Shown here piece by piece: positions 3,016 to 27,710 of a stretch of DNA of 64,000 nucleotides. Origin of the DNA: Escherichia coli (GTDB lineage Bacteria > Pseudomonadota > Gammaproteobacteria > Enterobacterales > Enterobacteriaceae); the NCBI RefSeq assembly GCF_044647545.1, contig NZ_CP172818.1. One strand, given 5' to 3'. The notes under the pieces are model-generated. The model was not told where the DNA came from, did not search any database, and worked only from the letters and a program-made list of their open reading frames with translations. Both the position numbers and the translations under genes were made by a program. Positions within the stretch are counted from its first letter, which is position 1. Each line of letters begins with the position of its first letter.

Positions 3016-3048
3016 TCCCTCCCCATGAGGGGAAAGGCGATTAATACC

Positions 3049-4308: not shown

Positions 4309-4311
4309 GTT

Positions 4312-6292: not shown

Positions 6293-6496
6293 AAATTACC
6301 GACGACCTCTGAAGTTATCCTGACGTTTTACAGGCTTTGTATTAAGAAACTATTAAGCCTGTGAGATATTATTTTTACCGGTGAGAGAGTCACGTCAGGG
6401 TAGAGAGATAATGAGAGCAGCTATATAAGAGATCAGCGCAATTACGATATCTTGATTACACTGACAGGATTTTACATATTTAACGGATTATCCTCA

Positions 6497-6521
6497 GGAA
6501 AAAGGGCTGGAATACCAGCCC
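6497..6521 (-). terminator. Putative rho-independent terminator downstream of tdh (end of kbl-tdh operon)
   Basis: GC stem gggctgg/ccagccc (6504..6521) followed on the minus strand by a T-run, 10 bp after the tdh stop. Confidence 0.5.
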
Positions 6522-6530
6522 TTGTTTGTG

Positions 6531-7556
6531 TTAATCCCAGCTCAGGATAACTTTCCCGGACTGGCCCGAACGCATGGCGTCAAAGCCCTTCTGGAAATCA
6601 TCGATAGAGAAACGATGAGTAATGATCGGCGAAAGATCGAGGCCAGACTGAATCAGCGCCGCCATCTTGTACCAGGTTTCAAACATCTCACGACCGTAAA
6701 TACCTTTAATGAACAAGCCTTTAAAGATCACTTTGGTCCAGTCGATAGACATATCAGACGGTGGAATACCCAGCATCGCAATACGACCGCCGTGGTTCAT
6801 GGTGTCGAGCATGGTACGAAACGCTGGCGGCGCACCGGACATTTCCAGACCGACATCAAAGCCTTCGGTCATGCCCAGTTCTGTCATCACATCATTAAGG
6901 TTTTCTTTCGCGACGTTAACCGCACGGGTGATACCCATTTTACGCGCCAGCTCAAGGCGGTATTCGTTAACATCAGTAATCACCACGTTACGTGCACCAA
7001 CGTGTTTCGCCACCGCCGCAGCCATAATACCTATCGGACCTGCACCAGAAACCAGTACATCTTCGCCCACCAGATCGAACGACAGCGCAGTATGCACGGC
7101 GTTACCGAACGGATCAAAAATGGAAGCCAAATCGTCGGAGATATTGTCAGGGATTTTGAAGGCGTTGAACGCCGGAATCACCAGATATTCGGCGAAGCAG
7201 CCCGGACGGTTAACACCGACACCAGTGGTGTTGCGGCACAGATGGGTACGACCGCCACGACAGTTGCGACAGTGACCGCAAGTGATATGGCCTTCACCAG
7301 ATACGCGATCGCCAATCTTGAAGCCTTTCACTTCCTGACCAATACCTACCACTTCACCGACATATTCATGGCCCACGACCATCGGCACCGGGATGGTTTT
7401 TTGCGACCACTCATCCCAGTTATAGATGTGAACGTCAGTCCCGCAGATGGCTGTTTTACGGATTTTAATCAGCAGATCGTTATGCCCGAGTTCCGGTACA
7501 GGAACGTCGGTCATCCAGATGCCCTCTTCCGCTTTCAGTTTGGATAACGCTTTCAT
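6531..7556 (-). CDS. tdh: L-threonine 3-dehydrogenase
   Basis: 341 aa ORF, zinc-dependent MDR-family motifs ([15 protein letters not shown]); kbl-tdh operon arrangement. Confidence 0.95.
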
Positions 7557-7565
7557 CTCACATCC

Positions 7566-8762
7566 TCAGGCGATAACGCCCAGTTGTTTACCAATACGCG
7601 TGAATGCTTCTACTGCACGCGTAATTTGCTCAGGGGTATGCGCCGCAGACATCTGGGTACGAATACGCGCCTGACCTTTCGGAACGACCGGATAGAAGAA
7701 ACCGGTGACGTAAATCCCCTCTTTTTGCAGCTCACGAGCAAATTTCTGCGCTACTACCGCATCGCCAAGCATGACCGGAATAATGGCGTGATCGGCTCCC
7801 GCCAGGGTAAAGCCCGCCGCCGACATTTGCTCACGGAACTGACGCGCGTTCGCCCACAGACGGTCACGCAGCTCGCTACCCGCTTCAACCATCTCCAGCA
7901 CTTTGATGGAAGCGGCAACAATGGCCGGTGCCAGCGAGTTGGAGAACAGGTACGGACGAGAACGCTGGCGCAGCCACTCAACCACTTCTTTGCGCGCCGC
8001 GGTATAACCACCAGAAGCCCCGCCCAATGCTTTACCCAACGTACCGGTAATGATGTCTACACGCCCCATCACATCGCAGTATTCATGGGAACCACGACCG
8101 TTTTCACCGACAAAACCGACCGCGTGGGAGTCGTCTACCATCACCAGGGCATCGTATTTATCTGCCAGATCGCAAACGCCCTTCAGATTGGCAATCACGC
8201 CGTCCATCGAGAACACACCATCGGTGGCAATCAGCACATGACGCGCACCGGCTTCACGCGCTTCTTTCAGACGAGCTTCCAGCTCCTGCATATCGTTGTT
8301 GGCATAGCGATAGCGTTTAGCTTTACACAGACGCACACCATCAATAATAGACGCGTGGTTCAGTGCGTCGGAGATAATGGCGTCTTCCGCGCCCAACAGC
8401 GTTTCAAACAGGCCACCGTTAGCATCAAAGCAGGAAGAGTAGAGAATCGCATCTTCCATCCCCAGGAAGGCCGCCAGTTTTTGTTCAAGCTCTTTATGAC
8501 TGTCCTGAGTGCCGCAAATAAAACGCACCGAAGCCATGCCGAAACCGTGAGAATCCATTCCCGCCTTTGCCGCCGCAATCAGATCCGGATGATTCGCCAG
8601 TCCGAGATAGTTATTGGCACAAAAGTTAATGACGTGGCTTCCATCAGCCACAGTGATATCTGCTTGCTGCGCAGACGTAATAATGCGCTCTTCTTTAAAC
8701 AACCCTTCCGCCCGTGCGGTTTCCAGATCGTTGGTTAACTGCTGATAACATTCTCCACGCAT
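7566..8762 (-). CDS. kbl: 2-amino-3-ketobutyrate CoA ligase (glycine C-acetyltransferase)
   Basis: 398 aa ORF, PLP-dependent aminotransferase class II; immediately upstream of tdh. Confidence 0.95.
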
Positions 8763-8971
8763 TGCGATTCTCCAGACAGGGCAAATTCCAGCACATATTA
8801 CCCAAACTTATAGGTCGCGACGAGATGACGCGTTAACACTTCTGCAAAATTCAGGATAAATCCAGCCCCCTCACTTTTGGTGAATGGCTGAAGCCAACGT
8901 CATGTAGTGATATGATAAGAAGTATTCGTGTCTGAGATTGTCTCTGACTCCATAATTCGAAGGTTACAGCT

Positions 8972-9904
8972 ATGATCATCGTTACCGGCGGCGCGGGCTT
9001 TATCGGCAGCAACATCGTTAAAGCCCTGAATGATAAAGGCATCACCGATATTCTGGTGGTGGACAACCTGAAAGACGGCACCAAGTTTGTCAACCTGGTG
9101 GATCTGGATATCGCGGACTATATGGATAAGGAAGACTTCCTGATCCAGATTATGGCTGGCGAAGAGTTCGGCGATGTCGAAGCGATTTTCCACGAAGGCG
9201 CGTGCTCTTCCACCACCGAGTGGGACGGCAAGTATATGATGGATAACAACTATCAATACTCCAAAGAGCTGCTGCACTACTGTCTGGAGCGCGAAATCCC
9301 GTTCCTGTATGCCTCTTCCGCAGCCACTTACGGTGGACGCACCTCCGACTTTATTGAATCCCGCGAATATGAAAAACCGTTGAATGTCTACGGTTACTCA
9401 AAATTCCTGTTTGATGAATATGTTCGCCAAATCCTGCCTGAAGCGAACTCGCAGATTGTTGGCTTCCGTTATTTCAACGTTTATGGACCGCGTGAAGGCC
9501 ATAAAGGCAGCATGGCGAGCGTCGCTTTCCATCTCAACACCCAGCTTAATAACGGTGAATCACCGAAGCTGTTCGAAGGTAGCGAGAACTTTAAACGCGA
9601 CTTCGTCTATGTGGGCGACGTGGCAGATGTAAACCTGTGGTTCCTGGAAAATGGCGTTTCCGGCATCTTCAACCTCGGTACTGGTCGTGCGGAATCCTTC
9701 CAGGCTGTAGCAGATGCTACGCTTGCTTATCACAAGAAAGGCCAGATCGAATACATTCCGTTCCCGGATAAACTGAAAGGCCGCTATCAGGCGTTCACGC
9801 AGGCAGACCTGACGAATCTGCGCGCGGCGGGTTATGACAAACCGTTCAAAACCGTTGCCGAAGGCGTAACGGAATACATGGCCTGGCTGAATCGCGACGC
9901 ATAA
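8972..9904 (+). CDS. hldD: ADP-L-glycero-D-manno-heptose 6-epimerase
   Basis: 310 aa ORF starting [16 protein letters not shown] (Rossmann NAD(P) motif); first gene of hldD-waaFCL operon. Confidence 0.95.
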
Positions 9905-9913
9905 GAGCTCTGC

Positions 9914-10960
9914 ATGAAAATACTGGTGATCGGCCCGTCTTGGGTTGGCGACATGATGATGTCGCAAAGTCTCTATCGCACGCTCCAGGCGCGCTATCCC
10001 CAGGCGATAATCGACGTGATGGCACCGGCATGGTGCCGTCCATTATTATCGCGGATGCCGGAAGTTAACGAAGCTATTCCTATGCCTCTCGGTCACGGAG
10101 CGCTGGAAATCGGCGAACGCCGCAAACTGGGTCATAGTCTGCGTGAAAAGCGCTACGACCGCGCCTACGTCTTACCCAACTCCTTCAAGTCCGCATTAGT
10201 GCCTTTCTTCGCGGGTATTCCTCATCGCACCGGCTGGCGCGGCGAGATGCGCTACGGTTTACTTAACGATGTACGCGTGCTCAATAAAGAAGCCTGGCCG
10301 CTAATGGTGGAACGCTATGTCGCGCTGGCCTATGACAAAGGCATTATGCGTACAGCACAAGATCTGCCGCAGCCATTGTTATGGCCGCAGTTGCAGGTGA
10401 GCGAAGGTGAAAAATCATATACCTGTAATCAATTTTCGCTTTCATCAGAACGTCCGATGATTGGCTTTTGCCCGGGTGCGGAGTTTGGTCCGGCAAAACG
10501 CTGGCCACACTACCACTATGCGGAGCTGGCAAAGCAGCTGATTGATGAAGGTTATCAGGTGGTTCTGTTTGGCTCGGCGAAAGATCATGAAGCGGGCAAT
10601 GAGATTCTTGCCGCTTTGAATACTGAGCAGCAGGCATGGTGTCGTAACCTGGCGGGGGAAACACAGCTTGATCAAGCGGTTATCCTGATTGCAGCCTGTA
10701 AAGCCATTGTCACTAACGATTCTGGCCTGATGCACGTTGCGGCGGCGCTCAATCGTCCGCTGGTTGCCCTGTATGGTCCGAGTAGCCCAGACTTCACACC
10801 GCCGCTATCCCATAAAGCGCGCGTGATCCGCCTGATTACCGGCTATCACAAAGTGCGTAAAGGTGACGCTGCGGAGGGTTATCACCAGAGCTTGATCGAC
10901 ATTACTCCCCAGCGCGTACTGGAAGAACTCAACGCGCTATTGTTACAAGAGGAAGCCTGA
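9914..10960 (+). CDS. waaF: LPS heptosyltransferase II
   Basis: 348 aa ORF, GT9 heptosyltransferase; synteny. Confidence 0.93.
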   Translation: MKILVIGPSWVGDMMMSQSLYRTLQARYPQAIIDVMAPAWCRPLLSRMPEVNEAIPMPLGHGALEIGERRKLGHSLREKRYDRAYVLPNSFKSALVPFFAGIPHRTGWRGEMRYGLLNDVRVLNKEAWPLMVERYVALAYDKGIMRTAQDLPQPLLWPQLQVSEGEKSYTCNQFSLSSERPMIGFCPGAEFGPAKRWPHYHYAELAKQLIDEGYQVVLFGSAKDHEAGNEILAALNTEQQAWCRNLAGETQLDQAVILIAACKAIVTNDSGLMHVAAALNRPLVALYGPSSPDFTPPLSHKARVIRLITGYHKVRKGDAAEGYHQSLIDITPQRVLEELNALLLQEEA

Positions 10961-10963
10961 CGG

Positions 10964-11923
10964 ATGCGGGTTTTGATCGTTAAAACATCGTCGATGGGCG
11001 ATGTTCTCCATACGTTGCCCGCACTCACTGATGCCCAGCAGGCAATCCCAGGGATTAAGTTTGACTGGGTGGTGGAAGAAGGGTTCGCACAGATTCCTTC
11101 CTGGCACGCCGCCGTTGAGCGAGTTATTCCTGTGGCAATACGTCGCTGGCGTAAAGCCTGGTTCTCGGCCCCCATAAAAGCTGAACGCAAAGCGTTTCGT
11201 GAAGCGCTACAAGCAGAGAACTATGACGCAGTTATCGATGCTCAGGGGCTGGTAAAAAGCGCGGCGCTGGTGACGCGTCTGGCGCATGGCGTAAAGCATG
11301 GCATGGACTGGCAAACCGCTCGCGAACCTTTAGCCAGCCTGTTTTACAATCGTAAGCATCATATTGCGAAACAGCAGCACGCCGTAGAACGCACCCGCGA
11401 ACTGTTTGCCAAAAGTTTGGGCTATAGCAAACCGCAAACCCAGGGCGATTATGCTATCGCACAGCATTTCCTGACGAACCGGCCTACAGATGCTGGCGAA
11501 TATGCCGTATTTCTTCATGCGACGACCCGTGATGATAAACACTGGCCGGAAGAACACTGGCGAGAATTGATTGGTTTACTGGCTGATTCAGGAATACGGA
11601 TTAAACTTCCGTGGGGCGCGCCGCATGAGGAAGAACGGGCGAAACGACTGGCGGAAGGATTTGCTTATGTTGAAGTATTGCCGAAGATGAGTCTGGAAGG
11701 CGTTGCCCGCGTGCTGGCCGGGGCTAAATTTGTAGTGTCGGTGGATACGGGGTTAAGCCATTTAACGGCGGCACTGGATAGACCCAATATCACGGTTTAT
11801 GGACCAACCGATCCTGGATTAATTGGTGGGTATGGGAAGAATCAGATGGTTTGTAGGGCTCCAAGAGAAAATTTAAATAACCTCAACAGTCAAGCAGTTT
11901 TGGAAAAGTTATCATCATTATAA
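10964..11923 (+). CDS. waaC: LPS heptosyltransferase I
   Basis: 319 aa ORF, GT9; synteny. Confidence 0.93.
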   Translation: MRVLIVKTSSMGDVLHTLPALTDAQQAIPGIKFDWVVEEGFAQIPSWHAAVERVIPVAIRRWRKAWFSAPIKAERKAFREALQAENYDAVIDAQGLVKSAALVTRLAHGVKHGMDWQTAREPLASLFYNRKHHIAKQQHAVERTRELFAKSLGYSKPQTQGDYAIAQHFLTNRPTDAGEYAVFLHATTRDDKHWPEEHWRELIGLLADSGIRIKLPWGAPHEEERAKRLAEGFAYVEVLPKMSLEGVARVLAGAKFVVSVDTGLSHLTAALDRPNITVYGPTDPGLIGGYGKNQMVCRAPRENLNNLNSQAVLEKLSSL

Positions 11924-11932
11924 AGGTAAAAC

Positions 11933-13192
11933 ATGCTAACATCCTTTAAACTTCATTCATTGAAACCTTACACTCTGAAATCATCAATGATTTTAGAGAT
12001 AATAACTTATATATTATGTTTTTTTTCAATGATAATTGCATTCGTCGATAATACTTTCAGCATAAAAATATATAATATCACTGCTATAGTTTGCTTATTG
12101 TCACTAATTTTACGTGGCAGACAAGAAAATTATAATATAAAAAACCTTATTCTTCCCCTTTCTATATTTTTAATAGGCTTGCTTGATTTAATTTGGTATT
12201 CTGCGTTTAAAGTAGATAATTCGCCATTTCGTGCTACTTACCATAGTTATTTAAATACTGCCAAAATATTTATATTTGGTTCTTTTATTGTTTTCTTGAC
12301 ACTAACTAGCCAGCTAAAATCAAAAAAAGAGAGTGTATTATACACTTTGTATTCTCTGTCATTTCTAATTGCTGGATATGCAATGTATATTAATAGCATT
12401 CATGAAAATGACCGCATTTCTTTTGGTGTAGGAACGGCAACAGGAGCAGCATATTCAACAATGCTAATAGGGATAGTTAGTGGCGTTGCGATTCTTTATA
12501 CTAAGAAAAATCATCCTTTTTTATTTTTATTAAATAGTTGCGCGGTACTTTATGTTCTGGCGCTAACACAAACCAGAGCAACCCTACTCCTGTTCCCTAT
12601 AATTTGTGTTGCTGCATTAATAGCTTATTATAATAAATCACCCAAGAAATTCACTTCCTCTATTGTTCTACTAATTGCTATATTAGCTAGCATTGTTATT
12701 ATATTTAATAAACCAATACAGAATCGCTATAATGAAGCATTAAATGACTTAAACAGTTATACCAATGCTAATAGTGTTACTTCCCTAGGTGCAAGACTGG
12801 CAATGTACGAAATTGGTTTAAATATATTCATAAAGTCACCTTTTTCATTTAGATCAGCAGAGTCACGCGCTGAAAGTATGAATTTGTTAGTTGCAGAACA
12901 CAATAGGCTAAGAGGGGCATTGGAGTTTTCTAACGTACATCTACATAATGAGATAATTGAAGCAGGGTCACTGAAAGGTCTGATGGGAATTTTTTCCACA
13001 CTTTTCCTCTATTTTTCACTATTTTATATAGCATATAAAAAACGAGCTTTGGGTTTGTTGATATTAACGCTTGGCATTGTGGGGATTGGACTCAGTGATG
13101 TGATCATATGGGCACGCAGCATTCCAATTATCATTATATCCGCTATAGTCCTCTTACTCGTCATTAATAATCGTAACAATACAATTAATTAA
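11933..13192 (+). CDS. waaL: O-antigen ligase
   Basis: 419 aa polytopic membrane protein, AT-rich codon usage; position after waaC; length equals K-12 WaaL. Confidence 0.9.
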   Translation: MLTSFKLHSLKPYTLKSSMILEIITYILCFFSMIIAFVDNTFSIKIYNITAIVCLLSLILRGRQENYNIKNLILPLSIFLIGLLDLIWYSAFKVDNSPFRATYHSYLNTAKIFIFGSFIVFLTLTSQLKSKKESVLYTLYSLSFLIAGYAMYINSIHENDRISFGVGTATGAAYSTMLIGIVSGVAILYTKKNHPFLFLLNSCAVLYVLALTQTRATLLLFPIICVAALIAYYNKSPKKFTSSIVLLIAILASIVIIFNKPIQNRYNEALNDLNSYTNANSVTSLGARLAMYEIGLNIFIKSPFSFRSAESRAESMNLLVAEHNRLRGALEFSNVHLHNEIIEAGSLKGLMGIFSTLFLYFSLFYIAYKKRALGLLILTLGIVGIGLSDVIIWARSIPIIIISAIVLLLVINNRNNTIN

Positions 13193-13206
13193 GAATAAAC
13201 AAGTTT

Positions 13207-13232
13207 AAGAAGTGAGTTAAAACTCACTTCTT
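13207..13232. terminator. Perfect palindrome between convergent waaL and waaU (putative bidirectional terminator)
   Basis: aagaagtgagtt-aa-aactcacttctt inverted repeat overlapping the waaU stop codon. Confidence 0.4.
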
Positions 13233-14297
13233 ATCTATACAACTTAATCTCTTTACTGAATTAGTTAAAGTTTCAGTATCGATATCTTTTACCGTATATG
13301 TTGGGGATACTATTTGTATAGATTTATGATGATTCGGGGACCAAATTAAATGCGAGGGATATTCCGGAGTACGTGAATTAGGGTAAAATGCAAGCGTTGG
13401 TTTATGATAAGCCGCAGCGATATGAACAAGAGCTGTATCAACAGAAATGACAAAATCACTATACTTGGTCAACGCAACGGTATAAATAAACTCATCAAAT
13501 GGTAGTGTTTCGATTTCAAGTATTGGTATTGTCAATAAATCTTGCGGTAACCCGGTAAATATAATCCGATAATTTTCAAAGTGTGTTTTCACTTCTTGAT
13601 ATATAACTTTTATTTGCTCAAACGTAAGACGGCATATTTTTTTTGCACCTAATGGATTAATAATGACTATTCTTGTATCTCCAATAAATTCTTTTATTTT
13701 ATCTTCAACATCTACTGGTAAATGCAAGTCGTAGTTGGTGGAAAATTTACCCTCACCATAAATATGCTTCAGTATTTCTATTGCTCGTGTACTCATATGT
13801 TCTTTTAAACATTCATCGTGGGGATGGTAAAATGAATAGTAACGCTTATACCAATGATCAAAACCCAGAATGTAAGAATCTTTTAAACTTGATAATATTA
13901 AGCTATGCTTAAATGAGGGCATAGTTTCAAAGGGGTCTAATACAATATCGAACTGTAAATCCCGCAGATGCTTACATAGAGTAAGCATTTCAAGAAAACC
14001 GGTTGATTCTTTAATACAGAACTCAAATATATTTTTATTATTAGAGAGAAATTCCCCACCCTTTCTATTTGTGAGAAGAGTTATTTTAACCCCTTTACTA
14101 TAAAGTTCACGATAAATCGAACTTAATACAATTAGATCACCAAGTTTATTATTATCATGAATAATAAGGCATGATTTAACTTGTGCTGGATCTGTAATTT
14201 GATTATTTATTTTATTACGAAATAAAAAAGAAAGGAAATTAATCTTGATTTTGTTTATATAAAATCTTTTCTTTTTGTGAAAAGTTCCTAAGCGCAT
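13224..14297 (-). CDS. waaU: LPS core heptosyltransferase IV (RfaK/WaaU, K-12 type)
   Basis: 357 aa ORF, GT9-like; last gene of waaQ operon; length equals K-12 WaaU. Confidence 0.85.
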   Translation of the reverse strand: MRLGTFHKKKRFYINKIKINFLSFLFRNKINNQITDPAQVKSCLIIHDNNKLGDLIVLSSIYRELYSKGVKITLLTNRKGGEFLSNNKNIFEFCIKESTGFLEMLTLCKHLRDLQFDIVLDPFETMPSFKHSLILSSLKDSYILGFDHWYKRYYSFYHPHDECLKEHMSTRAIEILKHIYGEGKFSTNYDLHLPVDVEDKIKEFIGDTRIVIINPLGAKKICRLTFEQIKVIYQEVKTHFENYRIIFTGLPQDLLTIPILEIETLPFDEFIYTVALTKYSDFVISVDTALVHIAAAYHKPTLAFYPNSRTPEYPSHLIWSPNHHKSIQIVSPTYTVKDIDTETLTNSVKRLSCIDKK

Positions 14298-14329
14298 TTT
14301 TATACCATATTATTTTAGTTTCAGGATGA

Positions 14330-15181
14330 TTAATTAGCATAAGAATCGGTTGAAGTTCTATATTGCATTTTTTTTCTTGTCATATCTTTTGATTCTTCTG
14401 CACTGATGTCTTGAAGTTTAATAAATGGAATTACATCGTAAGAAATAGCTGTATCATCTGATAAATTATAAATATTAATATCTTTTACATTATCATGCAT
14501 AAAACGAAAAAATGGCAATATTTTGAATAAATCCCTACTTAATTCCGAGGGCATGGGATTTTTATTCTCATCATAGAAACGAGAACAGCTACCCGTTAAA
14601 TCAAGACCAGAACAAATAATCCGCGCATACTTAAGTGAATATGCGATTTGAATTGCAGCAAAGGCAATAGTATGGCATGAGCAATAACCAAGACTAATGT
14701 CCTTGCAAAATCCAACCAGACGACCTTTTTTAGACAACGGTACAGAGATCAGCAGTTCTTTGTGAATCTGTCTCAAAATATTAAATTTAATCTTCTTTAT
14801 AAAACCACCTTTTTCCCGACGGTAAAAGGACCGTAATACGAGGCAGTTCTGGAGGATATAAAGTTTATCTTCTTTGGAAGCGTGTTCATAAACGTCAACG
14901 TTTACTATGGTATAACGACTTCTCTGGCTAAATTTATAAAAATCATCACGACGCTGATGTAAAAATCGGACATCTGTAAGTACATATATAAAAGGAACGA
15001 TATTATTACTTAACAGATATTGCGCAGAACCATTGACAGCAATAATATCCTTTGTTCGTAATACTGACAAAGGTGTTTTTTGCGATGTAGGGCCCGAAAG
15101 AAAAATAATAACATCATCAGATATTTTATTTTCAATCAGGTTTTCAACATCTTTTTTGTCAATGTATCTAATATTCTTCAT
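14330..15181 (-). CDS. waaZ: LPS core biosynthesis protein WaaZ (KdoIII-associated)
   Basis: 283 aa ORF; position and length as in K-12 waa cluster. Confidence 0.8.
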   Translation of the reverse strand: MKNIRYIDKKDVENLIENKISDDVIIFLSGPTSQKTPLSVLRTKDIIAVNGSAQYLLSNNIVPFIYVLTDVRFLHQRRDDFYKFSQRSRYTIVNVDVYEHASKEDKLYILQNCLVLRSFYRREKGGFIKKIKFNILRQIHKELLISVPLSKKGRLVGFCKDISLGYCSCHTIAFAAIQIAYSLKYARIICSGLDLTGSCSRFYDENKNPMPSELSRDLFKILPFFRFMHDNVKDINIYNLSDDTAISYDVIPFIKLQDISAEESKDMTRKKMQYRTSTDSYAN

Positions 15182-15251
15182 GATAAACCTGTGAAATAAA
15201 TAACTCCGCTTAAAACTGTCCTGGTGAAGACATGTAATTGTGGGATTTTTT

Positions 15252-15950
15252 TTAGCGCGCTGGTTTCCCTTTCAAACGCCGCATAAAATTGCGCATTTTT
15301 TTACGATATACTAAAAGATAATAGCCTAGATCTCTAATCTCATTTTTAATACCGTAATGACGCTCTAAGTCAATACGATCTTTCGCTTTACGCTGCGCTG
15401 AAGCACGCTTTCCGGAGAGATCGATAATTCGAACCTCACCATTTTTTATAATGAAGTTACCACGATGGGGGTCGCCAGAAACCATGCCATGTTGATGTAA
15501 GGCATTAATTGATTGCTGAATTTTATTTTTTAGCGCATCATCAATATCGGGCATATCACACAACTCTATGCCATCAATATACTCGATGATCATGATATAA
15601 GTATGGACAAAACGTAAGGTTTTCCGTTCAGCCAATAAATAAAAGTCATTGAGTGTATTTAACCCTTCATTTCGTACTTTTTGGGTTTGCTCAAAAAGGC
15701 GTTCGTAATAATCACCTTTTAACAGAGACTTAAAGAAACGTTCGTTACGCTTAACTTTCGGAGAAAAAACCTTAAGAATCAATTTACCGTAATCGGTATC
15801 AATAAGCATAACTTTTGTATCATCAATAGAACGAAAAACCTTGATGATATTTATATTATAAGACAAGAAGTCATTTAATACATTGAGGTACTTTGAATTG
15901 TTTTCATCGGTAAAAACAACCAAGTCTTTGATCTTGCTCTTCTGAATCAT
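15252..15950 (-). CDS. waaY: LPS core heptose(II) kinase
   Basis: 232 aa ORF, kinase-like (HGDPHRGNF); position and length as K-12 WaaY. Confidence 0.85.
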   Translation of the reverse strand: MIQKSKIKDLVVFTDENNSKYLNVLNDFLSYNINIIKVFRSIDDTKVMLIDTDYGKLILKVFSPKVKRNERFFKSLLKGDYYERLFEQTQKVRNEGLNTLNDFYLLAERKTLRFVHTYIMIIEYIDGIELCDMPDIDDALKNKIQQSINALHQHGMVSGDPHRGNFIIKNGEVRIIDLSGKRASAQRKAKDRIDLERHYGIKNEIRDLGYYLLVYRKKMRNFMRRLKGKPAR

Positions 15951-15967
15951 AATAAACCAGTTAAATG

Positions 15968-16984
15968 TTATTTACGGTAATATTTTCGGCAAAGATAACA
16001 GACTCCTGCTATAATTCCTGAGATATAATGATGTTGCACTAAAAGATGTTTATATCTTTTTTTAAATTCAATAATTGATTTCGCATCTCGTGGAGAGTCA
16101 TCTTTCCAGGGGGAATTTTCTAAAGCTATTTTATAGTATTTTACCGATGGATAAATTGCCCATTTGTGCCACGGTTTAGTTGCACCTGTATAATGAATAA
16201 GAAGAGTACTTTCTGTAATCAGCTTTTTATAGTTTTGATGTGTTTTGTCTTTTAATTCACTTTTAATTGTATAAATTGTATTGTACTCACGAGGCAAAAA
16301 TAATGTCATCCCTTTCAGTAAGACATTCATAACATCCTGATCAGGGTATTTATAAACATTATCTTTACTCATAAGAATAGACAACGCTTTTTCTGTTAGT
16401 TTTGCGTCAGCCCATTTTTTTAAGTCTAAATAAACGACACCGGAATTAAAGTACTGCCCAAGTAATTCAGGATCAGACAACCTGGATACCGCCTTTTCTT
16501 GCATTGGCTCAACATCTTTAACAACAGCAGCAACCGCTCCATTTAAACCCAGATGTAATAGTTGGCTAATATCGCCTTTACAAACAACATCTGCATCAAG
16601 ATAAAGCAAACGATCAAGCGTTAAACCCAATAATTGAAATGCAAATAAACGGAAGTACATTGCTCTTGACCAGACCTGTGTACAAGGCAAGCACTGGAGC
16701 TTATCAGTGTTAATTCTATATAACGTGATTCTTAATTGGTTTTGCTCTGCAAGCTTTGCAATTTTTTGAAAAAAACCATCATTATAAACATCAGCAATAA
16801 TATAAAAATCAAGATTAATATGTCGATTATTTAGGACAATTGATGTGATGGAAACACCTACACCATCAAGATAATTAGCATCGACACCATAGGCAACATT
16901 TAAACATTCAGAAGTATTTATATTAGCTAGCCGAAAATCCCAGGCTTTAACTTTATCTATCTCTATGGCAGGAAATGAGTCCAC
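15968..16984 (-). CDS. waaJ: LPS alpha-1,2-glucosyltransferase (GT8; RfaJ, called WaaR in Heinrichs nomenclature)
   Basis: 338 aa ORF, GT8 family with DxD; position and length as K-12. Confidence 0.85.
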   Translation of the reverse strand: MDSFPAIEIDKVKAWDFRLANINTSECLNVAYGVDANYLDGVGVSITSIVLNNRHINLDFYIIADVYNDGFFQKIAKLAEQNQLRITLYRINTDKLQCLPCTQVWSRAMYFRLFAFQLLGLTLDRLLYLDADVVCKGDISQLLHLGLNGAVAAVVKDVEPMQEKAVSRLSDPELLGQYFNSGVVYLDLKKWADAKLTEKALSILMSKDNVYKYPDQDVMNVLLKGMTLFLPREYNTIYTIKSELKDKTHQNYKKLITESTLLIHYTGATKPWHKWAIYPSVKYYKIALENSPWKDDSPRDAKSIIEFKKRYKHLLVQHHYISGIIAGVCYLCRKYYRK

Positions 16985-17023
16985 AATGCTACCCTTATAT
17001 CATTACTTTATAGTTTCCCAGTT

Positions 17024-18043
17024 TTAATGCTTTATCTTTTCAATAAAATAAAAAAGATAGTTGCTAAATCCTTTTAGATATCTATGCTTTTTAAGCATAT
17101 GTTTTGCGCTATATCTTAATTGATTGCTATTGTTCGGTTTCAGCAACGCCGTATTCTTCCATGGCGAAGCATTTTTTGCCTCCATAAAGGCTTGTGATAC
17201 AGGATAATCCCAGGCCCAATCATGCCAGGGCTTGGTTGGCCCGATATAATGGATAAAAATAGTATCGTTGGTTACTGGGTTTATAAAGCTTTCTTTGAGT
17301 TGATAATTTAAGCTGAACTGGGTGTTATATTTAATATCAGCGAAAATAAGTTTATCCGCCAGCAACATATTTAACACATCCTGATCAGGATGTGTTATTT
17401 TTTTGATTATTTCTGGCTCATTTAGCATTGCAATAGCTCGTGCAGAAACCTGCTGAGCCGCCCATTGGGCAGTATTAATCAATAAAAAACCGGAGTTAAA
17501 GTAACCTTTAGCAATTCCCGCAACACCTAACGAATGGGCGCGTTTTTCCCACCAGTCAGCTTGCCCTTCTGTAACAACCATTGCGACTTTATCGTCAGGA
17601 AATGAGAAATTAATTAGTGGCTCAATAGTCCCCTGACAAATGATATCTGCATCCAGATAAAGGACTTTAGGCGCCTTATTAATAAAGTAATCTGCAATAA
17701 CAAAACGAAAATATATTGCATGAGTCCAATTCTTAGTGCTAGGCAATGAGCGCAGTCGATCACCATTAATCAGATATATTTTAATTCTGGTTTTATACTG
17801 CAACGCCAGGGCATCAAAATACTTACGATCATCATCACCAAAATAATCAGTAAAAATATGGAAACACAATCGACTTCCTTCATTATATTTTAATATTGAA
17901 GCAATCGAAATTCCGCAACCAAATAGAAAGTTTTTGTCAGTTCCATAAGCGATGTCCAGACAAAGATTTTCTGTTTCTACTTTATGATCATAATCAATAA
18001 CTGAATTAAGAAACTCAGTTTCCTGGAAAAACACCTGCTGCAT
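17024..18043 (-). CDS. waaO: LPS alpha-1,3-glycosyltransferase (GT8; RfaI/WaaO)
   Basis: 339 aa ORF, GT8 family, paralogous to waaJ; position and length as K-12. Confidence 0.85.
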   Translation of the reverse strand: MQQVFFQETEFLNSVIDYDHKVETENLCLDIAYGTDKNFLFGCGISIASILKYNEGSRLCFHIFTDYFGDDDRKYFDALALQYKTRIKIYLINGDRLRSLPSTKNWTHAIYFRFVIADYFINKAPKVLYLDADIICQGTIEPLINFSFPDDKVAMVVTEGQADWWEKRAHSLGVAGIAKGYFNSGFLLINTAQWAAQQVSARAIAMLNEPEIIKKITHPDQDVLNMLLADKLIFADIKYNTQFSLNYQLKESFINPVTNDTIFIHYIGPTKPWHDWAWDYPVSQAFMEAKNASPWKNTALLKPNNSNQLRYSAKHMLKKHRYLKGFSNYLFYFIEKIKH

Positions 18044-19122
18044 TATTTCCTCCGGGAAATAGCAGAAATAATTACCTTATGTAATCTATCGTAATACTTC
18101 GATTGGTAAAATTCATCGATCGACGCAGGAATTTTTTCATGTTCGATATGAATTTCACCTGCTATATATTTATTTAGAAGAGTTACAAAACCAGCAATAT
18201 CTCCCGGTTGATACAGATGGCCATTGACATCAGGTTGAATAATGTCAGCAGGCCCGGAGACACAATCGGCACTGATACAAGGAATCCCCCACGACAAGGC
18301 TTCAAGTAGGGTCATTGGGAAACCTTCAAAAGATGACGTGAGCAATAACGCACTCACTTTTTCAATATCTTGCTGGACCAATTCCCAGGGATATTGTTGC
18401 CAACCATACCAGACAATTCGATCATCAATATTTAATTCTCTACCATAAGCCTGGCATTTTTCGAAATCGGAGCCATCACCCAATACATGGAGTTTCCAGT
18501 TACCTTTCGCTTGTGATAAGCCATCAAGCAGGTCTTTAACTCTTTTCTGGCCTTCAAATTTCATACGCCCAACATAAATAAACGTTGCCGTTTCACCTTC
18601 CTCGGGCGCGGGAATGACTGAGTCTTTAGTTTCGACGGGATTAAAAATAACATTTATCGTCGATTCTGCTACACCTCGATTAATCATTTGCTGTTTAATG
18701 CCAGAGCTGATTGCTAAATGATAGTCGGCACAGGTGATATATTCAGCATGTTTTTTGTGATCTAAAGAAAAATGTGGCCATGAAAATACTGGCATATCAA
18801 TTCCTGATTTTTTACGTGCTTTTGCGGCAAACAGGCAGGAGATCACATCAATACAAATAACGATATCTGGTTGGTACTCCTGAAGCCATTTACTTAGAGC
18901 ATGAATATGTTTCGCCCGACGCAAAAAACCTAAACGAATATTGGAAAATGAACATGAGTATTTAATACCTTCCAGCCATCCCTTATCCATTTTGTCATTA
19001 CGACAAAAGAAAAACATTTCACTTTGGATATGTTGTTGCCTGAAGGTAGTAATAACATCACGGATGACAGTTTCCATGCCGCCAAATCCAGAAACAGCTT
19101 CGCCGATAAACGCTATTTTCAT
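18043..19122 (-). CDS. waaB: LPS alpha-1,6-galactosyltransferase (GT4)
   Basis: ORF 18043..19152 trimmed to MKIAFIG start giving 359 aa; GT4 family; position as K-12. Confidence 0.85.
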   Translation of the reverse strand: MKIAFIGEAVSGFGGMETVIRDVITTFRQQHIQSEMFFFCRNDKMDKGWLEGIKYSCSFSNIRLGFLRRAKHIHALSKWLQEYQPDIVICIDVISCLFAAKARKKSGIDMPVFSWPHFSLDHKKHAEYITCADYHLAISSGIKQQMINRGVAESTINVIFNPVETKDSVIPAPEEGETATFIYVGRMKFEGQKRVKDLLDGLSQAKGNWKLHVLGDGSDFEKCQAYGRELNIDDRIVWYGWQQYPWELVQQDIEKVSALLLTSSFEGFPMTLLEALSWGIPCISADCVSGPADIIQPDVNGHLYQPGDIAGFVTLLNKYIAGEIHIEHEKIPASIDEFYQSKYYDRLHKVIISAISRRK

Positions 19123-19165
19123 AGAAACTCTCATTAATTGAGTAAAACTCACTGTTTTAACGGTT

Positions 19166-20101
19166 TTATTTGTCTATAAAATCAGAAACAATCGTTGACA
19201 TCATTTTATCTGGACTGAATTTATATAAACTATCATAATCCATTGGTTTAACAGATGAGTTAATAAAATACTCTAACTTATCCCAATCATCATGACCTAT
19301 TATAAAAAAGCGAGATTCACTATAGATTTCTGAACCAAATACATTTATATTATTAGTAATTAATTTTTTATTGAAAAATAGTGCCTCAAGTATACGAAGA
19401 GTCCAGCCAGATTGGTTTTCTTTGGTTATATCAACAATTATATTAGCATTTAATGTTCTTCTAATATTCTCTTCATAAGATATTTGTTTTTCAATCAAAT
19501 ACTTTGAAGTCGTAGATGATGTCTTATCTTTGACAACATTAAAATCTAGCTTACATCCTAGTGTTGTTAATCTCTCGGCTAACTCATTAATTATTTGAAG
19601 ACGCCCTTTATCACGACCAAGGAAAAAACATATTGGCTGGCTGTTATTTTTGTCAGATAAACTATAATTTCTAATTTCATCCATTCCTATAGGAAAAAAT
19701 TGTTCTATTGCCTTGATCTTTTCATTCCCTATAAATCTATGCTCAAAATCATATATAATATCGAAATAATTCGCGTTATCAAGAATAAAATCTTCGCCAA
19801 CAGTATTTCTTAGAAGCAAAACTTTATGACAGTTAATATTTTTTAATATTTGTTTATTGATACCTTTATTAACAACACTGTCATTAATGATAATTATGTC
19901 ATCTTTTTTAATATCATTGAGGTAATGCTTGATGAATAATCGCCCCAGCCATGCATTATCCATCCCTATTTTTGATATTTTTTTATTAATCCAGTTATAT
20001 TTTTTTGGTGTTGTTATATTTTTTATCTTGTACTTTTTTTTCAGGTACTGAATCATTTTTAATTCATAATCTGCAACCCAATTTATAAAATAAATAGTCA
20101 T
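19166..20101 (-). CDS. waaS: LPS core biosynthesis protein WaaS
   Basis: 311 aa ORF, very AT-rich; position and length as K-12 WaaS. Confidence 0.8.
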
Positions 20102-20137
20102 AATAAAGTTAGTTCCAGTACATACTAATAAATATTT

Positions 20138-20935
20138 TTATAATCCTTTGCGTTGTGTTCGCTCTTTAATACGCTCGGCCTTAACGCTTGCCATGTTCAA
20201 TAAATTCTGTTCAAGAGACAATATTTTGCGTAAAGGCATCCCAAAATACACTTTCATAAACCGCCAGATATCCCGCTGAGTCAGGCCGATATTCATCGAA
20301 GAAAAATAAAGCCCAATAAGATCTTTATCGCGCCAACGACGTGGAACGCGCGTGCGAAGCTGCGCCCGGTGCAGGTCAATTACTGAAATTTTTAACTCCT
20401 CTTCCTTACCGGAAAAAGGCAAGTGCAGCAGGAAATGACAGATATAACAGTCACGGTGGTTAATGCCCGCAGCATGCATATCGCGCACCATCGTCGCGAC
20501 ACGCTTAATAAGCATACGCTTTACGCGAACATCTGGTGGGTTGGTCGCCCAGTCAGCACAGTAATCTTCCAGACTGATGGTTGGTGTCAGATCTTCGGTA
20601 ATAATAAACGAGGTTCTGGTCAGCGGATTAATGCCTTTTTCGCCGAATGCCACCCCATACATAGTATCAACGCCGACATCCCGCAGTCGATGAATCGCAT
20701 TCCATTCGCGGTCTGCGCCTAATACTGGCATCCGCAATGAGAGTAAATTTTTGATTATCTCTTTCAGGGTCGTGCCGCGATGCCATTTGAGAAAATAGCT
20801 TTTGCCCGCCATTTCAAAGCGCAGAGTGCGGCGAGTTTCCAGTTCACGAAATACCTCACCCTGCAAGGTTTTAACTTCCTCAAAAGGATCTTTACCGCGC
20901 CATAACGTGGCAAACGGCTCTTTAAGTTCAACCAT
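20138..20935 (-). CDS. waaP: LPS core heptose(I) kinase
   Basis: Trimmed to [14 protein letters not shown] start giving 265 aa; kinase motifs ([11 protein letters not shown]). Confidence 0.9.
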
Positions 20936-22052
20936 CCAGACCACCCGTTATGATGTCCGCTGCTTTCTCTGGCAGACTGTATAAATCTTGTGTATCAGCA
21001 TAATGTCGCGCATTTTCTGCCCAGGCCTGGCGCAATGAAGATTGCGTTAACGCTTTGCGTAAAATCTCATTCAATGTTTCCTGGCGGAATGGCTCAGCAA
21101 TAGCCTCGCCGCAATTGGCGTCAACAATATAATGCGCATAGCCACAAACGGCTGTTGTTAGTACCGGTAATCCTGCAGTAATCGCTTCCAGCAGCACAAT
21201 TCCCGCCGCTTCCTGGTAGGCAGGATGAAGTAATAAATCCGCCGCCGCCATTAATTCCGAGACATCGTTGCGCCCCGAGAAGAAGTGAACATTACTGCGC
21301 ACGCCGCGTTTTTCTGCCAGCGCCTCAAATTTTCGCGGTTTATCCTGCCCAACAACATATAGTAATGTGTTGTGGCGCAGCGAATCCGGTAACGAAGCAA
21401 GTGCTTCAATGGAACGATCGACACCTTTACGCGTGAAGTCTGAACCGACCTGCAACAATAAATATTGTTGTTCGGTTATTCCATTCTTCTTACGGAAGAT
21501 TTCACGGCTATTCGCTGGTTGCTGGCTATATTTACGATCAGGATAAATCCCCGGTGGCAGAATATGAAAACGCTCCGCTTCAGTCTGATAATGTTTCTGG
21601 AAATCGGCGATTTGCTTATCTGTCAGCATCAGCAGCTGTGTCGGCTTGCCCTGTTCGAAGGTTGCCCGCTCAAAGGCGGCATAATGGCGATAACGTGACG
21701 TCAGGCGATAGAAAAAGCCTTTCTCCTGCGCTACTTTCTCGGCATAACAAACATCAGCGGCATAATAAACGTCCAGCCCCGGCATTTTATTAAATCCAAC
21801 GACTCTATCGACGGGGTATTCACGTAAATGTTTTTGCACCCAGGCAAAATATTCCGCATTGCGCCCGTGATTGGTATGCGATTTAACCGGCACTTTGATC
21901 AGTTCAAATACATCAGGGCATTCGCCTTCCCACGACTGGGTATAAACCCGAACATGATGACCTCGGGCGGCAACTGTCTGAGCAATACGCATAAAATCGC
22001 GCTGCAAACCGCCAAAGGGAAAATATTTATATAAACAAAAAGCAACGATCAT
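20928..22052 (-). CDS. waaG: LPS glucosyltransferase I (GT4)
   Basis: 374 aa ORF; overlaps waaP start and waaQ stop (translational coupling). Confidence 0.92.
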
Positions 22053-23107
22053 AACGACGTACCTGTCGTGGAGGAGGGAAGTAATTTATCGACAGCTGCA
22101 ATGACATCTGCCGCCGGAATAACCGAAAGATACATCTCATTTCGGTCACGCTGATCGCGCGTTGGCATTTCCCGGTAATCTCCCGCCCAGAATTGAATCA
22201 TGTTATTTGACCAGGGACGCCAGAAAATATGGTCTGTCGCACCAAACAGCGATATCAGTGGCGTATTAACTGCAGCGGCAATATGCGCCGGTGCGGAATC
22301 AACGCCAATAAACAGCTGCGCATGATCGATTAACGCACCAAGTTCCGGGAAGGTCACCTTTCCGGCCAGTGCCGTTACTGGTGGCGTCTGGCATCCCTGC
22401 GCAATTTCATTGACGCAGGCCAGATCGTCTTTATCTGGGCCGGACGTCAGAACGACTTCATAACCACGAGCATGTAAGGCATCAATCACAGCGGAAAACT
22501 TGGCGTTGTCCCAGCATTTGAAGATTTGCCGCGCCGTAGGTTGGATAACCACATAATTTTGTCCAACACCAGCGTGATCAAGTTCGCGACGCATACGTTT
22601 CCAGCTTGCAGGCGGGTAACTCATGGTTGTCTGCTTCACCAACGATTCAAGTCCCAATGGCGTCAGCACGGATAAGTTACTTTCCACCACATTTCCACCC
22701 TGCAACGGCACCAAATGAGTGAAACTATTACGCCAAAAAGCAGACTGCCGATGATGATAATCCTGGGAAATTTTCACACGGGCATTTAATAAGCGAACCA
22801 GTATAGCAACCATCCATTGATCGGTAAGATTAACGATAAGGTCATACTTATTGGCACGTAATATCTTGATGAGATGGAAAAAGTTGGCAATTTTTTCTGA
22901 GGCTTTTGCTTTTTTATTTTTTATGCCGTAGAGCGCGTTAATCTCTGGATTTTCAGACAGGATCGGGATGGTGTCCTGATAAAGCAGCACATCGATTTTT
23001 GCGTCAGGGTAATTTTTTTTCAGCGAACTAATGACGGGAGTAGTTAATAACATATCCCCATGAAAACGCATCTTAATGAGCAAAATTCTTCGAAATGGCT
23101 TATCCAC
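22049..23107 (-). CDS. waaQ: LPS heptosyltransferase III
   Basis: GT9 family; first gene of long operon; ORF starts with GTG at 23107 (352 codons); true start may be the in-frame TTG 24 nt downstream (344 aa). Confidence 0.88.
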   Translation of the reverse strand: MDKPFRRILLIKMRFHGDMLLTTPVISSLKKNYPDAKIDVLLYQDTIPILSENPEINALYGIKNKKAKASEKIANFFHLIKILRANKYDLIVNLTDQWMVAILVRLLNARVKISQDYHHRQSAFWRNSFTHLVPLQGGNVVESNLSVLTPLGLESLVKQTTMSYPPASWKRMRRELDHAGVGQNYVVIQPTARQIFKCWDNAKFSAVIDALHARGYEVVLTSGPDKDDLACVNEIAQGCQTPPVTALAGKVTFPELGALIDHAQLFIGVDSAPAHIAAAVNTPLISLFGATDHIFWRPWSNNMIQFWAGDYREMPTRDQRDRNEMYLSVIPAADVIAAVDKLLPSSTTGTSL

Positions 23108-23156
23108 AAGTAACTCTTTTTGTTGAGATTATCCGATTAAGGTGAAGCAGAAAAAG

Positions 23157-23168
23157 CACGCTACCGCC
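23157..23168 (-). promoter_or_regulatory. ops element (RfaH recruitment site) within the JUMPstart leader of the waaQ operon
   Basis: Minus-strand sequence GGCGGTAGCGTG matches the ops consensus GGCGGTAGnnTG, located ~50 nt upstream of the waaQ start inside a ~410 bp untranslated leader. Confidence 0.75.
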
Positions 23169-23519
23169 CCAGGCTCAACAGCTACCTGAATACTGATACC
23201 GCACTGATATTGACGCGCTAGTGTATCACTTCTTTCGCGGCAATCCGACCCGAATGATTTTTAAGCACATTGTTGATTTTCAATAAAGAAATCAATCAAA
23301 TAAAATCATTAGCAACCATATTCTTTTACTGTTGCTCTGCGATTCCTTCCTGCACGTACTGCAGAAATCAATGAATCGCATAAAAATACAAAAAAAGTAT
23401 AGATGTTCAGCAAGAATTGGCGGGTAAATTGCTATTTAAGTCAAAAACGGGAAAAGTAATGGTAAAGCCACAGCTAAATACATAGAATCCCCAGCACATC
23501 CATAAGTCAGCTATTTACT

Positions 23520-25284
<1,765 letters not shown>

Positions 25285-25322
25285 CGTTTATGCCGGATGG
25301 TATGCCATCCGGCTCGCATCAA

Positions 25323-26132
25323 TTACTTCTGGCACTGCCGACAATAAAACGTTGCCCGCTGCGCATGTTTAGTCGCCACAATTGGCGTACCGCACACCCG
25401 ACACGGCTCGCCTTTTCGCCCGTAAACCTGCAATTCCTGCGCGAAATAGCCCGGTTTACCATCACTTTGCAGAAAATCTTTCAGCGTTGTACCACCCTGC
25501 TCAATCGAACGCAGCAACACCGCTTTAATCACCCGAGCTAACAATTCACACTCTGCCAGCGACAGTGATGACGCCAGCCGATCCGGATGGATCCCCGCAG
25601 CAAACAGAGATTCGCTGGCATAGATATTCCCTACGCCTACCACCAGCTTGTTATCCATCAGCCATGGTTTAATCGCCGTTTTTTTCTTCGCGCACTTCTG
25701 ATGCAGGTACTCACCGTTGAAATCGTCGCTAAGCGGCTCCGGTCCAAGATGGGCCAGCACGTTGTGCCCTTCCAGCTCTTTGGTCCACAGCCAGGCACCA
25801 AAGCGGCGCGGATCGGTGTAGCGCAGCACTTTACCGTTGCTCATCACCAAATCAACATGGTCATGCTTTTCAGGGGGAAGTTCTTCTGGAAGGATGCGCA
25901 GGCTGCCAGACATCCCCAAATGAATGATAATCCAGCCCTCAGGCAGCTCCAGCAGCAGATATTTAGCCCGCCGCTGCACGCTAAGCACTGGTTGGTCGCT
26001 TAAACGGTAGATCTCTTCTGAAACCGGCCAGCGCAAGCGTCCGTTGCGCACCACCGCATGAAGAATGGTTGCACCAACGAGATGCGGTTCTATGCCGCGA
26101 CGGCTGGTTTCAACTTCGGGTAATTCAGGCAT
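25323..26132 (-). CDS. mutM: Formamidopyrimidine-DNA glycosylase
   Basis: 269 aa ORF starting MPELPEVE with C-terminal zinc finger (CRVCGTPI...CRQCQ). Confidence 0.95.
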
Positions 26133-26183
26133 AGCATCTCCAGGAATGAACAGATGCAGTCAATATGGGGGCAAGCAGATAAC

Positions 26184-26210
26184 AAAAAACCCCGCCGGAG
26201 CGAGGTTTTT
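26184..26210 (-). terminator. Putative rho-independent terminator after rpmG
   Basis: GC-rich hairpin flanked by A-run and T-run between the rpmG stop and mutM start. Confidence 0.5.
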
Positions 26211-26229
26211 CGTTACATCAAAGCGAGAA

Positions 26230-26400
<171 letters not shown>

Positions 26401-26417
26401 TTATTTCCTCTAAGTAC

Positions 26418-26675
<258 letters not shown>

Positions 26676-26870
26676 TTAGCTCGAGCTTCGTATGGGGTAT
26701 TGGCGCCTCGTCAGGCTTTACAGCCCGGTCATCGCAGTTCTATGTGAACTCTCGATTGCCAGGCCCAAATGCCAAACCCGAGATTCTCAAAGGTGGCGTA
26801 GTATACGCTGACTCAGCGATGTGCTCAAGTCCCGAACAGACAAAGATCCCGAAGGATCGCGCATAGCGGG

Positions 26871-27539: not shown

Positions 27540-27710
27540 CTTCACCTCCTTTGTGGTGCTCGCATCCTGTCATAGCCGTTCCGTTAAATCGACGGCCAGT
27601 TTTCAATCCTGGAAAGCGCCTCGCAAAGTGATTCTCAGGTGAAGGCACGACAACAAAAGTATTGTGATAAAATCGCCAACTTCTGGTGTCACCCAACAGG
27701 AAAAATCATC

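Follow-up and report, generated by a model that had tools for sequence, protein, structure and literature searches.

Why should one block of a chromosomal locus for lipopolysaccharide (LPS) core synthesis differ so sharply in base composition from the genes on either side of it, and does the difference mark a unit that strains of Escherichia coli exchange? The question is raised by the waa (rfa) locus of the window analysed here, a stretch of 64,000 nucleotides from contig NZ_CP172818.1 (assembly GCF_044647545.1), in which an earlier note had described waaL through waaS, at 12000-20101, as an AT-rich, horizontally exchanged cassette embedded between conserved inner-core genes. Compositional change points and the top-scoring segment place the AT-rich block at 11863-20260, and we regard it with high confidence as the K-12-type variable outer-core and ligase cassette of the waa locus, mobile as an exchangeable unit.

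The compositional difference is large. The guanine-plus-cytosine content (GC) of 12000-20101 was 0.333, against 0.509 in the rest of the window and 0.487 in the window as a whole, a measurement that bears out the AT-richness first noticed there, shows the original coordinates to be right within about 150 bp, and excludes a block GC close to the window average. All eight 1-kb bins of 12001-20000 fell at GC 0.29-0.40, whereas the 53 bins outside the block averaged 0.510 (standard deviation [sd] 0.038, minimum 0.419). Among 396 other intervals of 8.1 kb the minimum GC was 0.465 (mean 0.510, sd 0.022), and the block lies about 8 sd below that mean. The two-segment maximum-likelihood change points of composition are 11863 and 20260/20261, and the top-scoring AT-rich segment, 11863-20260, reached 534 nats, the runner-up being a 330-bp segment (51961-52292) with 32 nats. 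Between the stop codons of waaC and waaP, GC was 0.332.

The compositional bias of the cassette affects all three codon positions as well as amino-acid composition. Gene by gene, GC was 0.27-0.39 from waaL through waaS and 0.51-0.54 in hldD, waaF, waaC, and waaA. At third codon positions (GC3) it was 0.23-0.35 in the cassette genes, compared with 0.48-0.62 in hldD, waaF, waaC, and waaA and 0.45-0.62 across all flank genes, and at second positions (GC2) 0.24-0.36 against 0.34-0.43 in the flanks. Phe, Tyr, Met, Ile, Asn, and Lys together accounted for 0.31-0.47 of residues in the cassette proteins, against 0.20-0.32 in those of the flanks. Relative to 14 flanking housekeeping genes, four codons were enriched 3.5- to 14-fold in the cassette, namely ATA (33.8 vs. 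2.4 per 1000 codons), AGA (11.8 vs. 1.3), TTA (34.2 vs. 8.5), and AAT (47.5 vs. 13.6), and a codon-typicality index for which 14 housekeeping genes in the window served as reference gave 0.45-0.61 for the cassette and 0.60-0.80 outside it. The A/T-ending codons and the usage heavy in Lys, Asn, Ile, and Tyr that had been noted by eye are thus confirmed in the GC3 values, residue shares, and codon counts. The same note had taken the flanking core genes to be of typical E. coli composition, which holds for hldD, waaF, waaC, and waaA but not for waaP, waaG, and waaQ, where composition is intermediate (GC 0.466-0.478, GC3 0.445-0.49).

Eight intact open reading frames (ORFs) fill the block. They are identical to K-12 proteins, and their lengths, order, and orientation agree gene for gene (RefSeq names) with the annotated loci of K-12 and HS-01. 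The 8169 bp at 11933-20101 have 100% DNA identity to K-12 MG1655 and other K-12 strains, and over 11863-20248 the window is 100% identical to K-12 save at one site, 11877. On the plus strand, waaL (11933-13192; GC 0.319, GC3 0.252) encodes the O-antigen ligase of K-12 type (419 amino acids [aa]); the identical stretch bears the annotation waaL in both K-12 and HS-01, and the gene is the last of the hldD-waaF-waaC-waaL transcription unit. The remaining seven genes lie on the minus strand. By its K-12 annotation and a weak NCBIfam match to glycosyltransferase family 9 (GT9), waaU (13224-14297, 357 aa, GC 0.310) encodes heptosyltransferase IV. It is followed by waaZ (14330-15181, 283 aa, GC 0.325), a transferase of the third 3-deoxy-D-manno-octulosonic acid residue (Kdo III; NF007333, 554 bits, cut-off 473), and by waaY (15252-15950, 232 aa, GC 0.353), a heptose II kinase (NF007684, 400 bits, cut-off 248). 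Next come two genes of family GT8. The first, waaJ (waaR; 15968-16984, 338 aa, GC 0.338), is an alpha-1,2-glucosyltransferase gene, the identical K-12 DNA being annotated rfaJ, and matched NF011718 at paralogue level, under the cut-off; the second, waaO (17024-18043, 339 aa, GC 0.362), is an alpha-1,3-glycosyltransferase gene and reached 582 bits with the same model (cut-off 461). The GT4 alpha-1,6-galactosyltransferase gene waaB (18043-19122, GC 0.394) was assigned by annotation and NF007396 (611 bits, cut-off 385), with the annotated start taken, although the ORF reaches 19152. Finally, waaS (19166-20101, 311 aa, GC 0.268) encodes a glycosyltransferase of the WaaS/CpsH family (NF053598, 179 bits, cut-off 60) and is the most AT-rich gene of the block, with Phe, Tyr, Met, Ile, Asn, and Lys making up 0.474 of its residues.

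Five NCBIfam models (WaaZ, RfaY, WaaO, WaaB, and WaaS) were therefore matched beyond their cut-offs, and together with K-12 order and lengths and the 100% DNA identity they show that the gene identities first proposed for waaL to waaS were right. Seven of the products are predicted to modify or decorate the core, as glycosyltransferases (WaaO, WaaJ, WaaB, WaaU, and WaaS), Kdo transferase (WaaZ), or kinase (WaaY), and the eighth, WaaL, would ligate O-antigen to the finished core.

The evidence for exchange comes from other genomes. In a comparison set of 5426 complete E. coli genomes, the flanks of the locus were present in 5424 and the full K-12 cassette in 1031, and about 485 more genomes, of R2 type, hold solely a related waaZ-waaB block of about 87.5% identity. 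Strains of type R1 (KN12-1), R2 (strain 148), R3 (DG342-2), and R4 (FDAARGOS_1293) carry other gene sets at this same position, bounded by waaC and waaP; one of five mutually exclusive cassettes (K-12 and R1-R4) occupies the slot in E. coli. These alternatives at one position, and the patchy occurrence of the K-12 type, support the claim of a horizontally exchanged cassette between conserved inner-core genes, and, being drawn from real genomes, they support it independently of the window's own provenance. K-12-type cassettes occur in K-12 and HS-01, both of phylogroup A, and in the sequence type 131 (ST131) clone, of phylogroup B2 (Leclercq et al., 2021; PMC8715443), and further strains of the comparison set, LF82 among them, are without it and have other types. 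Judged from these genomes, the distribution of cassettes appears incongruent with strain phylogeny, and the nearest-neighbour genome in the identity profiles changes at the cassette boundaries.

The R1-R4 cassettes resemble the K-12 type in holding a ligase and glycosyltransferases, with waaO and waaY homologues in all, and in their composition, since their GC (R1, 0.347; R2, 0.353; R3, 0.333; R4, 0.352) is likewise far below that of the flanks (0.52 and 0.46-0.485). They differ from it in gene content, R1, R3, and R4 being without waaU, waaZ, waaB, and waaS; in the orientation of waaL, which in R1 and R4 is encoded on the other strand; and in sequence, with waaO and waaY being 65-70% identical to the K-12-type genes, while R2 shares waaZ through waaB at 86-90%. 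Because all five types share low GC, composition marks the class of locus and not the recency of a transfer.

Where does the variable unit end? The conserved left flank (8972-11862, plus strand, GC 0.521) comprises hldD (8972-9904), waaF (9914-10960), and most of waaC (from 10964). The left junction lies within waaC, about the last 20 codons of which (11863-11923) are linked to the cassette in alignments and C-terminal protein sequences; likewise, about the last 35 codons of waaP, on the minus strand at 20138-20241, are cassette-linked, and the right junction is at 20242-20260. The 3' ends of both genes co-vary with cassette type and hence form part of the variable unit. The right flank (20242-23107, minus strand, GC 0.466-0.478) holds waaP (to 20935), waaG (20928-22052), and waaQ (22049-23107), all of a common allele class, and beyond it lies waaA (23520-24797, plus strand, GC 0.540), the annotated and conserved Kdo transferase gene of typical composition. 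We infer that homologous recombination, through crossovers placed in the conserved flanking genes, transfers the whole cassette at once, and that the 3' ends of waaC and waaP would travel with it. Its AT-richness would then be an old, shared property, derived from a source of low GC and retained to the present.

An origin as a mobile element or classical genomic island was rejected. No insertion sequence, integrase, or transposase was found among the ORFs of the block, its flanking repeats are merely short AT-rich chance repeats, and between 8000 and 26000 no tRNA or other RNA family was detected apart from the JUMPstart element described below. Similarly, no remnants of phages, insertion sequences, or transposons have been reported at waa (PMC8715443). 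The same study gave a G+C content of about 51% at waaDFC and waaA, slightly lower in waaQGP and markedly lower in the central variable region, and read this composition as horizontal transfer integrated by homologous recombination; it also associated the K-12 core with the ST131 complex (STc131), and its phylogroup tables agree with a patchy distribution (PMC8715443). The low G+C and its explanation by transfer and homologous recombination are, consequently, already known (PMC8715443). The present analysis adds boundaries at base level, the linkage of the waaC and waaP 3' ends to the cassette, the division of waaQGP into two allele classes, and the unusual mosaic structure of the window.

Three points weigh against a mobile cassette of foreign, low-GC ancestry. 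That ancestry is an inference from composition, no donor lineage outside Escherichia having been identified here, where no search was aimed at one, and PMC8715443 reporting that it found none; the AT-richness common to the five cassettes could be kept by selection or regulation; and a K-12-identical cassette in a backbone identical to KN12-1 may not be biological, so that this particular arrangement cannot carry the argument. To these is added a caveat on the right-hand side, where waaQGP is not a uniformly conserved flank, given its intermediate composition and its two allele classes.

The second point leads to the regulation of the locus. The genes waaQ-G-P-S-B-O-J-Y-Z-U form one long operon, the distal AT-rich part of which needs RfaH, recruited at the operon polarity suppressor (ops) element, against premature termination; dependence of the distal genes on RfaH is known for K-12, and AT-rich DNA of this kind is a typical target of H-NS, a background with which the clustering of sigma-70-like sites in the block (see below) is consistent. 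In the window, a JUMPstart element with ops (GGCGGTAGCGTG) lies in the waaQ leader at 23157-23195 on the minus strand (pattern match; Rfam RF01707, 55.2 bits, gathering score 35), the GGCGGTAGCGTG motif preceding the start of waaQ by about 50 nt, and the element is the predicted loading site of RfaH for the long waaQ operon that crosses the AT-rich block. At the far end, a hairpin with a 12-bp stem (13206-13233) between the convergent waaL and waaU is probably a bidirectional terminator.

On such grounds, function or regulation might maintain the AT-richness (through a need for weak expression under RfaH control, binding of H-NS, or the amino-acid bias of membrane proteins), which would then not reflect foreign ancestry. 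Besides the JUMPstart/ops element on the operon, this explanation can call on the concentration of promoter-like, sigma-70-like sites in the block (42 of 50 in the scanned region 8900-24900, of which the block makes up 52%), on WaaL being an integral membrane protein, and on the persistence of the bias: all five types stand at 33-35% GC despite long residence in E. coli, and the K-12 and ST131 alleles differ by 2-8% without drift of the cassette toward host composition. However, soluble enzymes of the same families just beyond the boundary are 8-23 GC points richer. Among GT9 enzymes, waaU is at 0.310 inside, and waaC and waaF at 0.51-0.54 and waaQ at 0.466 outside; for GT4, waaB is at 0.394 and waaG at 0.478; and for the kinases, waaY is at 0.353 and waaP at 0.472. 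These differences argue against a purely functional cause. Furthermore, the shift touches GC1, GC2, and amino-acid usage, beyond synonymous sites, and composition changes in a step no more than a few bases from the homology breakpoints, both of which fall inside a gene. We therefore consider functional maintenance unlikely as the source of the bias, and it would in any case be compatible with horizontal exchange.

The reading of the block as an exchangeable cassette is placed in a wider setting by other surface polysaccharide loci. The O-antigen (rfb) and group 2/3 capsule clusters are, like the waa cassette, AT-rich, set between conserved flanks, exchanged by homologous recombination, and organized as RfaH/JUMPstart operons. 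They are unlike it in lying at other loci (galF-gnd and near serA, respectively), in having far more variants, and in encoding Wzx/Wzy or ABC-transporter machinery.

Exchange also seems to have reached inside the cassette. Gene by gene, the K-12 and ST131 versions are 91.6-97.8% identical, and waaZ through waaB of the K-12 and R2 types 86-90%, patterns which indicate that the cassette is itself a mosaic. Along the comparison of K-12 with ST131 (strain EC958), identity was 90-92% in waaB and waaS (18001-19000 and 19501-20500) and 96-98% elsewhere in the cassette; the drop in these two genes suggests further mosaic exchange within it. A metagenome contig, L015 (ERZ827168 NODE_19), aligned to 11987-26022, carries a K-12 cassette that is 99.6% identical from waaL to waaB; in place of waaS it has an R2-type GT8 gene with a GC of 0.29 and 93% identity to strain 148. 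This natural K-12/R2 hybrid is of a kind that the LPSTyper paper (2025; PMC13293308) describes.

The waaQGP genes, in turn, fall into two deeply diverged allele classes. MG1655 has waaPGQ of an R2-like class, 90-92% identical to an R2 strain and 70-81% identical to alleles of the other, common class, which is represented in the window, in ST131 and HS-01, and in strains of types R1, R3, and R4. With two classes spread across cassette types, the pairing of cassette type and waaQGP class is not fixed. The natural hybrid HS-01 illustrates this in combining a K-12 backbone and an MG1655-identical cassette with common-class waaPGQ. HS-01, BS-01, and BS-04 are strains from a livestock farm in Indonesia with a K-12-like backbone; HS-01 and BS-04 are recombinants, with the MG1655-identical cassette, common-class waaPGQ, and a breakpoint at the waaS/waaP boundary, and in BS-01 the cassette is more diverged from waaU to waaB, several waa genes being frameshifted in its assembly.

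Is the window, then, simply K-12? The locus is like that of K-12 in gene content, order, and orientation and in the JUMPstart element upstream of waaQ. It is unlike it in the flanks, which are 97-98% identical, in waaPGQ, which is 70-88% identical to MG1655 (common against R2-like class), and in the absence of yibB. An assignment of the window to K-12 from the identity of the cassette was rejected on the strength of these flank and waaPGQ values. Instead, about 50 kb of backbone is essentially 100% identical to KN12-1 (NZ_AP041125.1), a strain with an R1 cassette. The match covers 1-11862 (2 differences; 100% over the left flank 8972-11862), 20242-30071 (100%, including waaP, waaG, and waaQ), 30097-33533 (99.9%), 32851-47016 (100%), 47017-55857 (99.97%), and 55901-64000 (100% except at 57.0-58.0 kb). 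The sequence switches from KN12-1 to K-12 at 11863 and back at 20242-20260, in coincidence with the compositional change points, and the single deviating site, 11877, has the KN12-1 base within K-12-like sequence.

Such a mosaic could be a very recent natural switch from an R1 to a K-12 core, a single event exchanging exactly the AT-rich unit in a lineage otherwise always of R1 type. A donor of phylogroup A with an MG1655-identical cassette, for instance one like HS-01, would have supplied about 8.4 kb to a strain resembling KN12-1, by crossovers within 11816-11862 and 20242-20260. The arrangement is what such an event would leave, with R1-strain sequence at 1-11862 and 20242-30071 around a cassette 100% identical to K-12 and HS-01; the genomes nearest by flank identity have, as KN12-1 has, a locus span of R1 size (about 13.55 kb); and MG1655-identical cassettes occur in recorded field isolates, e.g., HS-01, with rph intact. 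Moreover, the fine mosaic at 11863-11881 (K-12/KN12-1/K-12) resembles heteroduplex repair and not a clean splice, and the junctions stand at natural homology limits common to HS-01 and ST131. On the other hand, crossovers within 47 bp and 19 bp of heterology are improbable for random tract ends, and searches for the products of the event speak against it. Neither cassette junction was present in the 5426 genomes, where the best 24-kb match reached 98.7% and the junction kilobases at most 99.6% and 99.5%; exact look-up of the hybrid WaaC and WaaP proteins in an assembly-wide gene index returned no record; and in metagenome contigs a left-junction 42-mer had 0 matches, while a right-junction 46-mer had one, in L015, which is non-specific and covers the waaP part only. 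The WaaG allele of the window occurs in 7040 blocks, and in all 30 of the 30 contigs read it stands beside an R1 cassette and a reverse-transcriptase gene. We accordingly hold a natural switch to be possible but doubtful. If it were true, it would suggest that crossovers find their resolution directly at the borders of the cassette, e.g., where branch migration stalls on meeting heterology, and the window would offer a base-level view of LPS core-type exchange in nature.

The remainder of the window bears on the same question, since it holds four further structural differences from KN12-1, which with the cassette make five in 64 kb, each unique among the 5426 genomes. Between slmA and pyrE (30072-30110), the 1.29-kb reverse-transcriptase insert of KN12-1 (L003 28826-30116) is absent; the empty site contains a degenerate palindrome and had a best natural match of 94.3% over 141 bp, and the insertion site resembles that of retron Ec107. 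At 47016/47017, between yicH (45282-47006) and yicI (47578-49896), a 6.7-kb island of KN12-1 with phosphotransferase system (PTS), aldolase, and ROK genes is deleted; the junction falls inside a BglG-family antiterminator gene, a remnant of about 530 bp (47026-47555) is absent from K-12, and none of the 5426 genomes spans the junction. At 55857-55901, between yicS and nepI, an island of about 18 kb in KN12-1, with eip genes resembling type III secretion system (T3SS) translocators, eilA, and the inverse autotransporter gene iatC, is missing, and the empty site had a best natural match of 96.5%. Lastly, at 57270-57990, between nepI (55895-57133) and yicN (58065-58544), lies a garbled toxin-antitoxin locus of helix-turn-helix (HTH) and RelE-ParE type with flanks 100% identical to KN12-1. 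This locus occurs in KN12-1 and 1716 other genomes, and the window version is at most 84% identical to any of the 5426; it holds no intact ORF and 15 of the 48 homopolymer runs of at least 7 bases in the window, including A12, A12, G16, and C9. It looks like sequence error or synthetic smoothing and not like natural divergence.

Small changes occur as well near the left edge of the locus, at the 5' end of kbl and in the intergenic region between kbl and hldD. Position 8749 gives a unique Phe5Cys in the otherwise invariant Kbl, a unique 5-bp deletion at 8861 lies exactly at the point where yibB (htrL) is inserted in K-12, and 8917 has a 1-bp insertion. The yibB gene is absent from the window, KN12-1, and ST131 alike.

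These differences count against a natural switch, which would leave four unique structural alleles, one of them non-biological in appearance, to be accounted for separately in the same 64 kb. The other explanation is that the mosaic is not biological, and that a sequence of KN12-1 lineage has had its variable segments replaced, deleted, or approximated through some technical or computational procedure (candidates are assembly from mixed samples or with the aid of a reference, consensus calling, and filling by a model), with the K-12 cassette copied from the commonest reference. A backbone that is 100.00% KN12-1 over about 50 kb and yet has five structural differences, all absent from 5426 genomes, is in keeping with this, as are the small unique changes at 8749, 8861, and 8917, which stand at the edges of K-12 alignment blocks, and switch points that equal the limits of alignable homology. 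Five unique structural alleles with almost no point differences, one of the alleles being error-like, are easier to reconcile with a computational or technical origin than with descent. Nevertheless, the window is not simply templated on K-12, given the absence of yibB, the roughly 530 bp of non-K-12 sequence at 47026-47555, and the non-K-12 waaPGQ; outside the cassette, the replaced sites do not reproduce K-12 sequence; no single process was identified that explains all the features; and draft assemblies beyond the searched collections could hold a real strain. A simple K-12-templated consensus was rejected, as yibB is absent, the roughly 530 bp are not in K-12, and the empty sites are not K-12 sequence. 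Overall, we judge a non-biological origin of the mosaic to be moderately probable.

In terms of significance, phages and colicins use the LPS outer core as a receptor, innate immunity targets it, and O-antigen is attached to it. Given these roles, the phage host range of a strain and the way it interacts with a host are shaped by the cassette that it carries. The compositional signature itself adds nothing new, being textbook knowledge and published. Delimiting the variable unit to the base, with the waaC and waaP 3' ends included, is of modest use in core typing and when recombineering arms are chosen. As to the mosaic, its authenticity needs checking before evolutionary conclusions are drawn from it or it is used as evidence of recent transfer. 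Elsewhere in the window, the second most AT-rich segment (51961-52292, GC 0.29) lies, by coordinates transferred from KN12-1, between a rhuM remnant beside the selC tRNA gene and setC.

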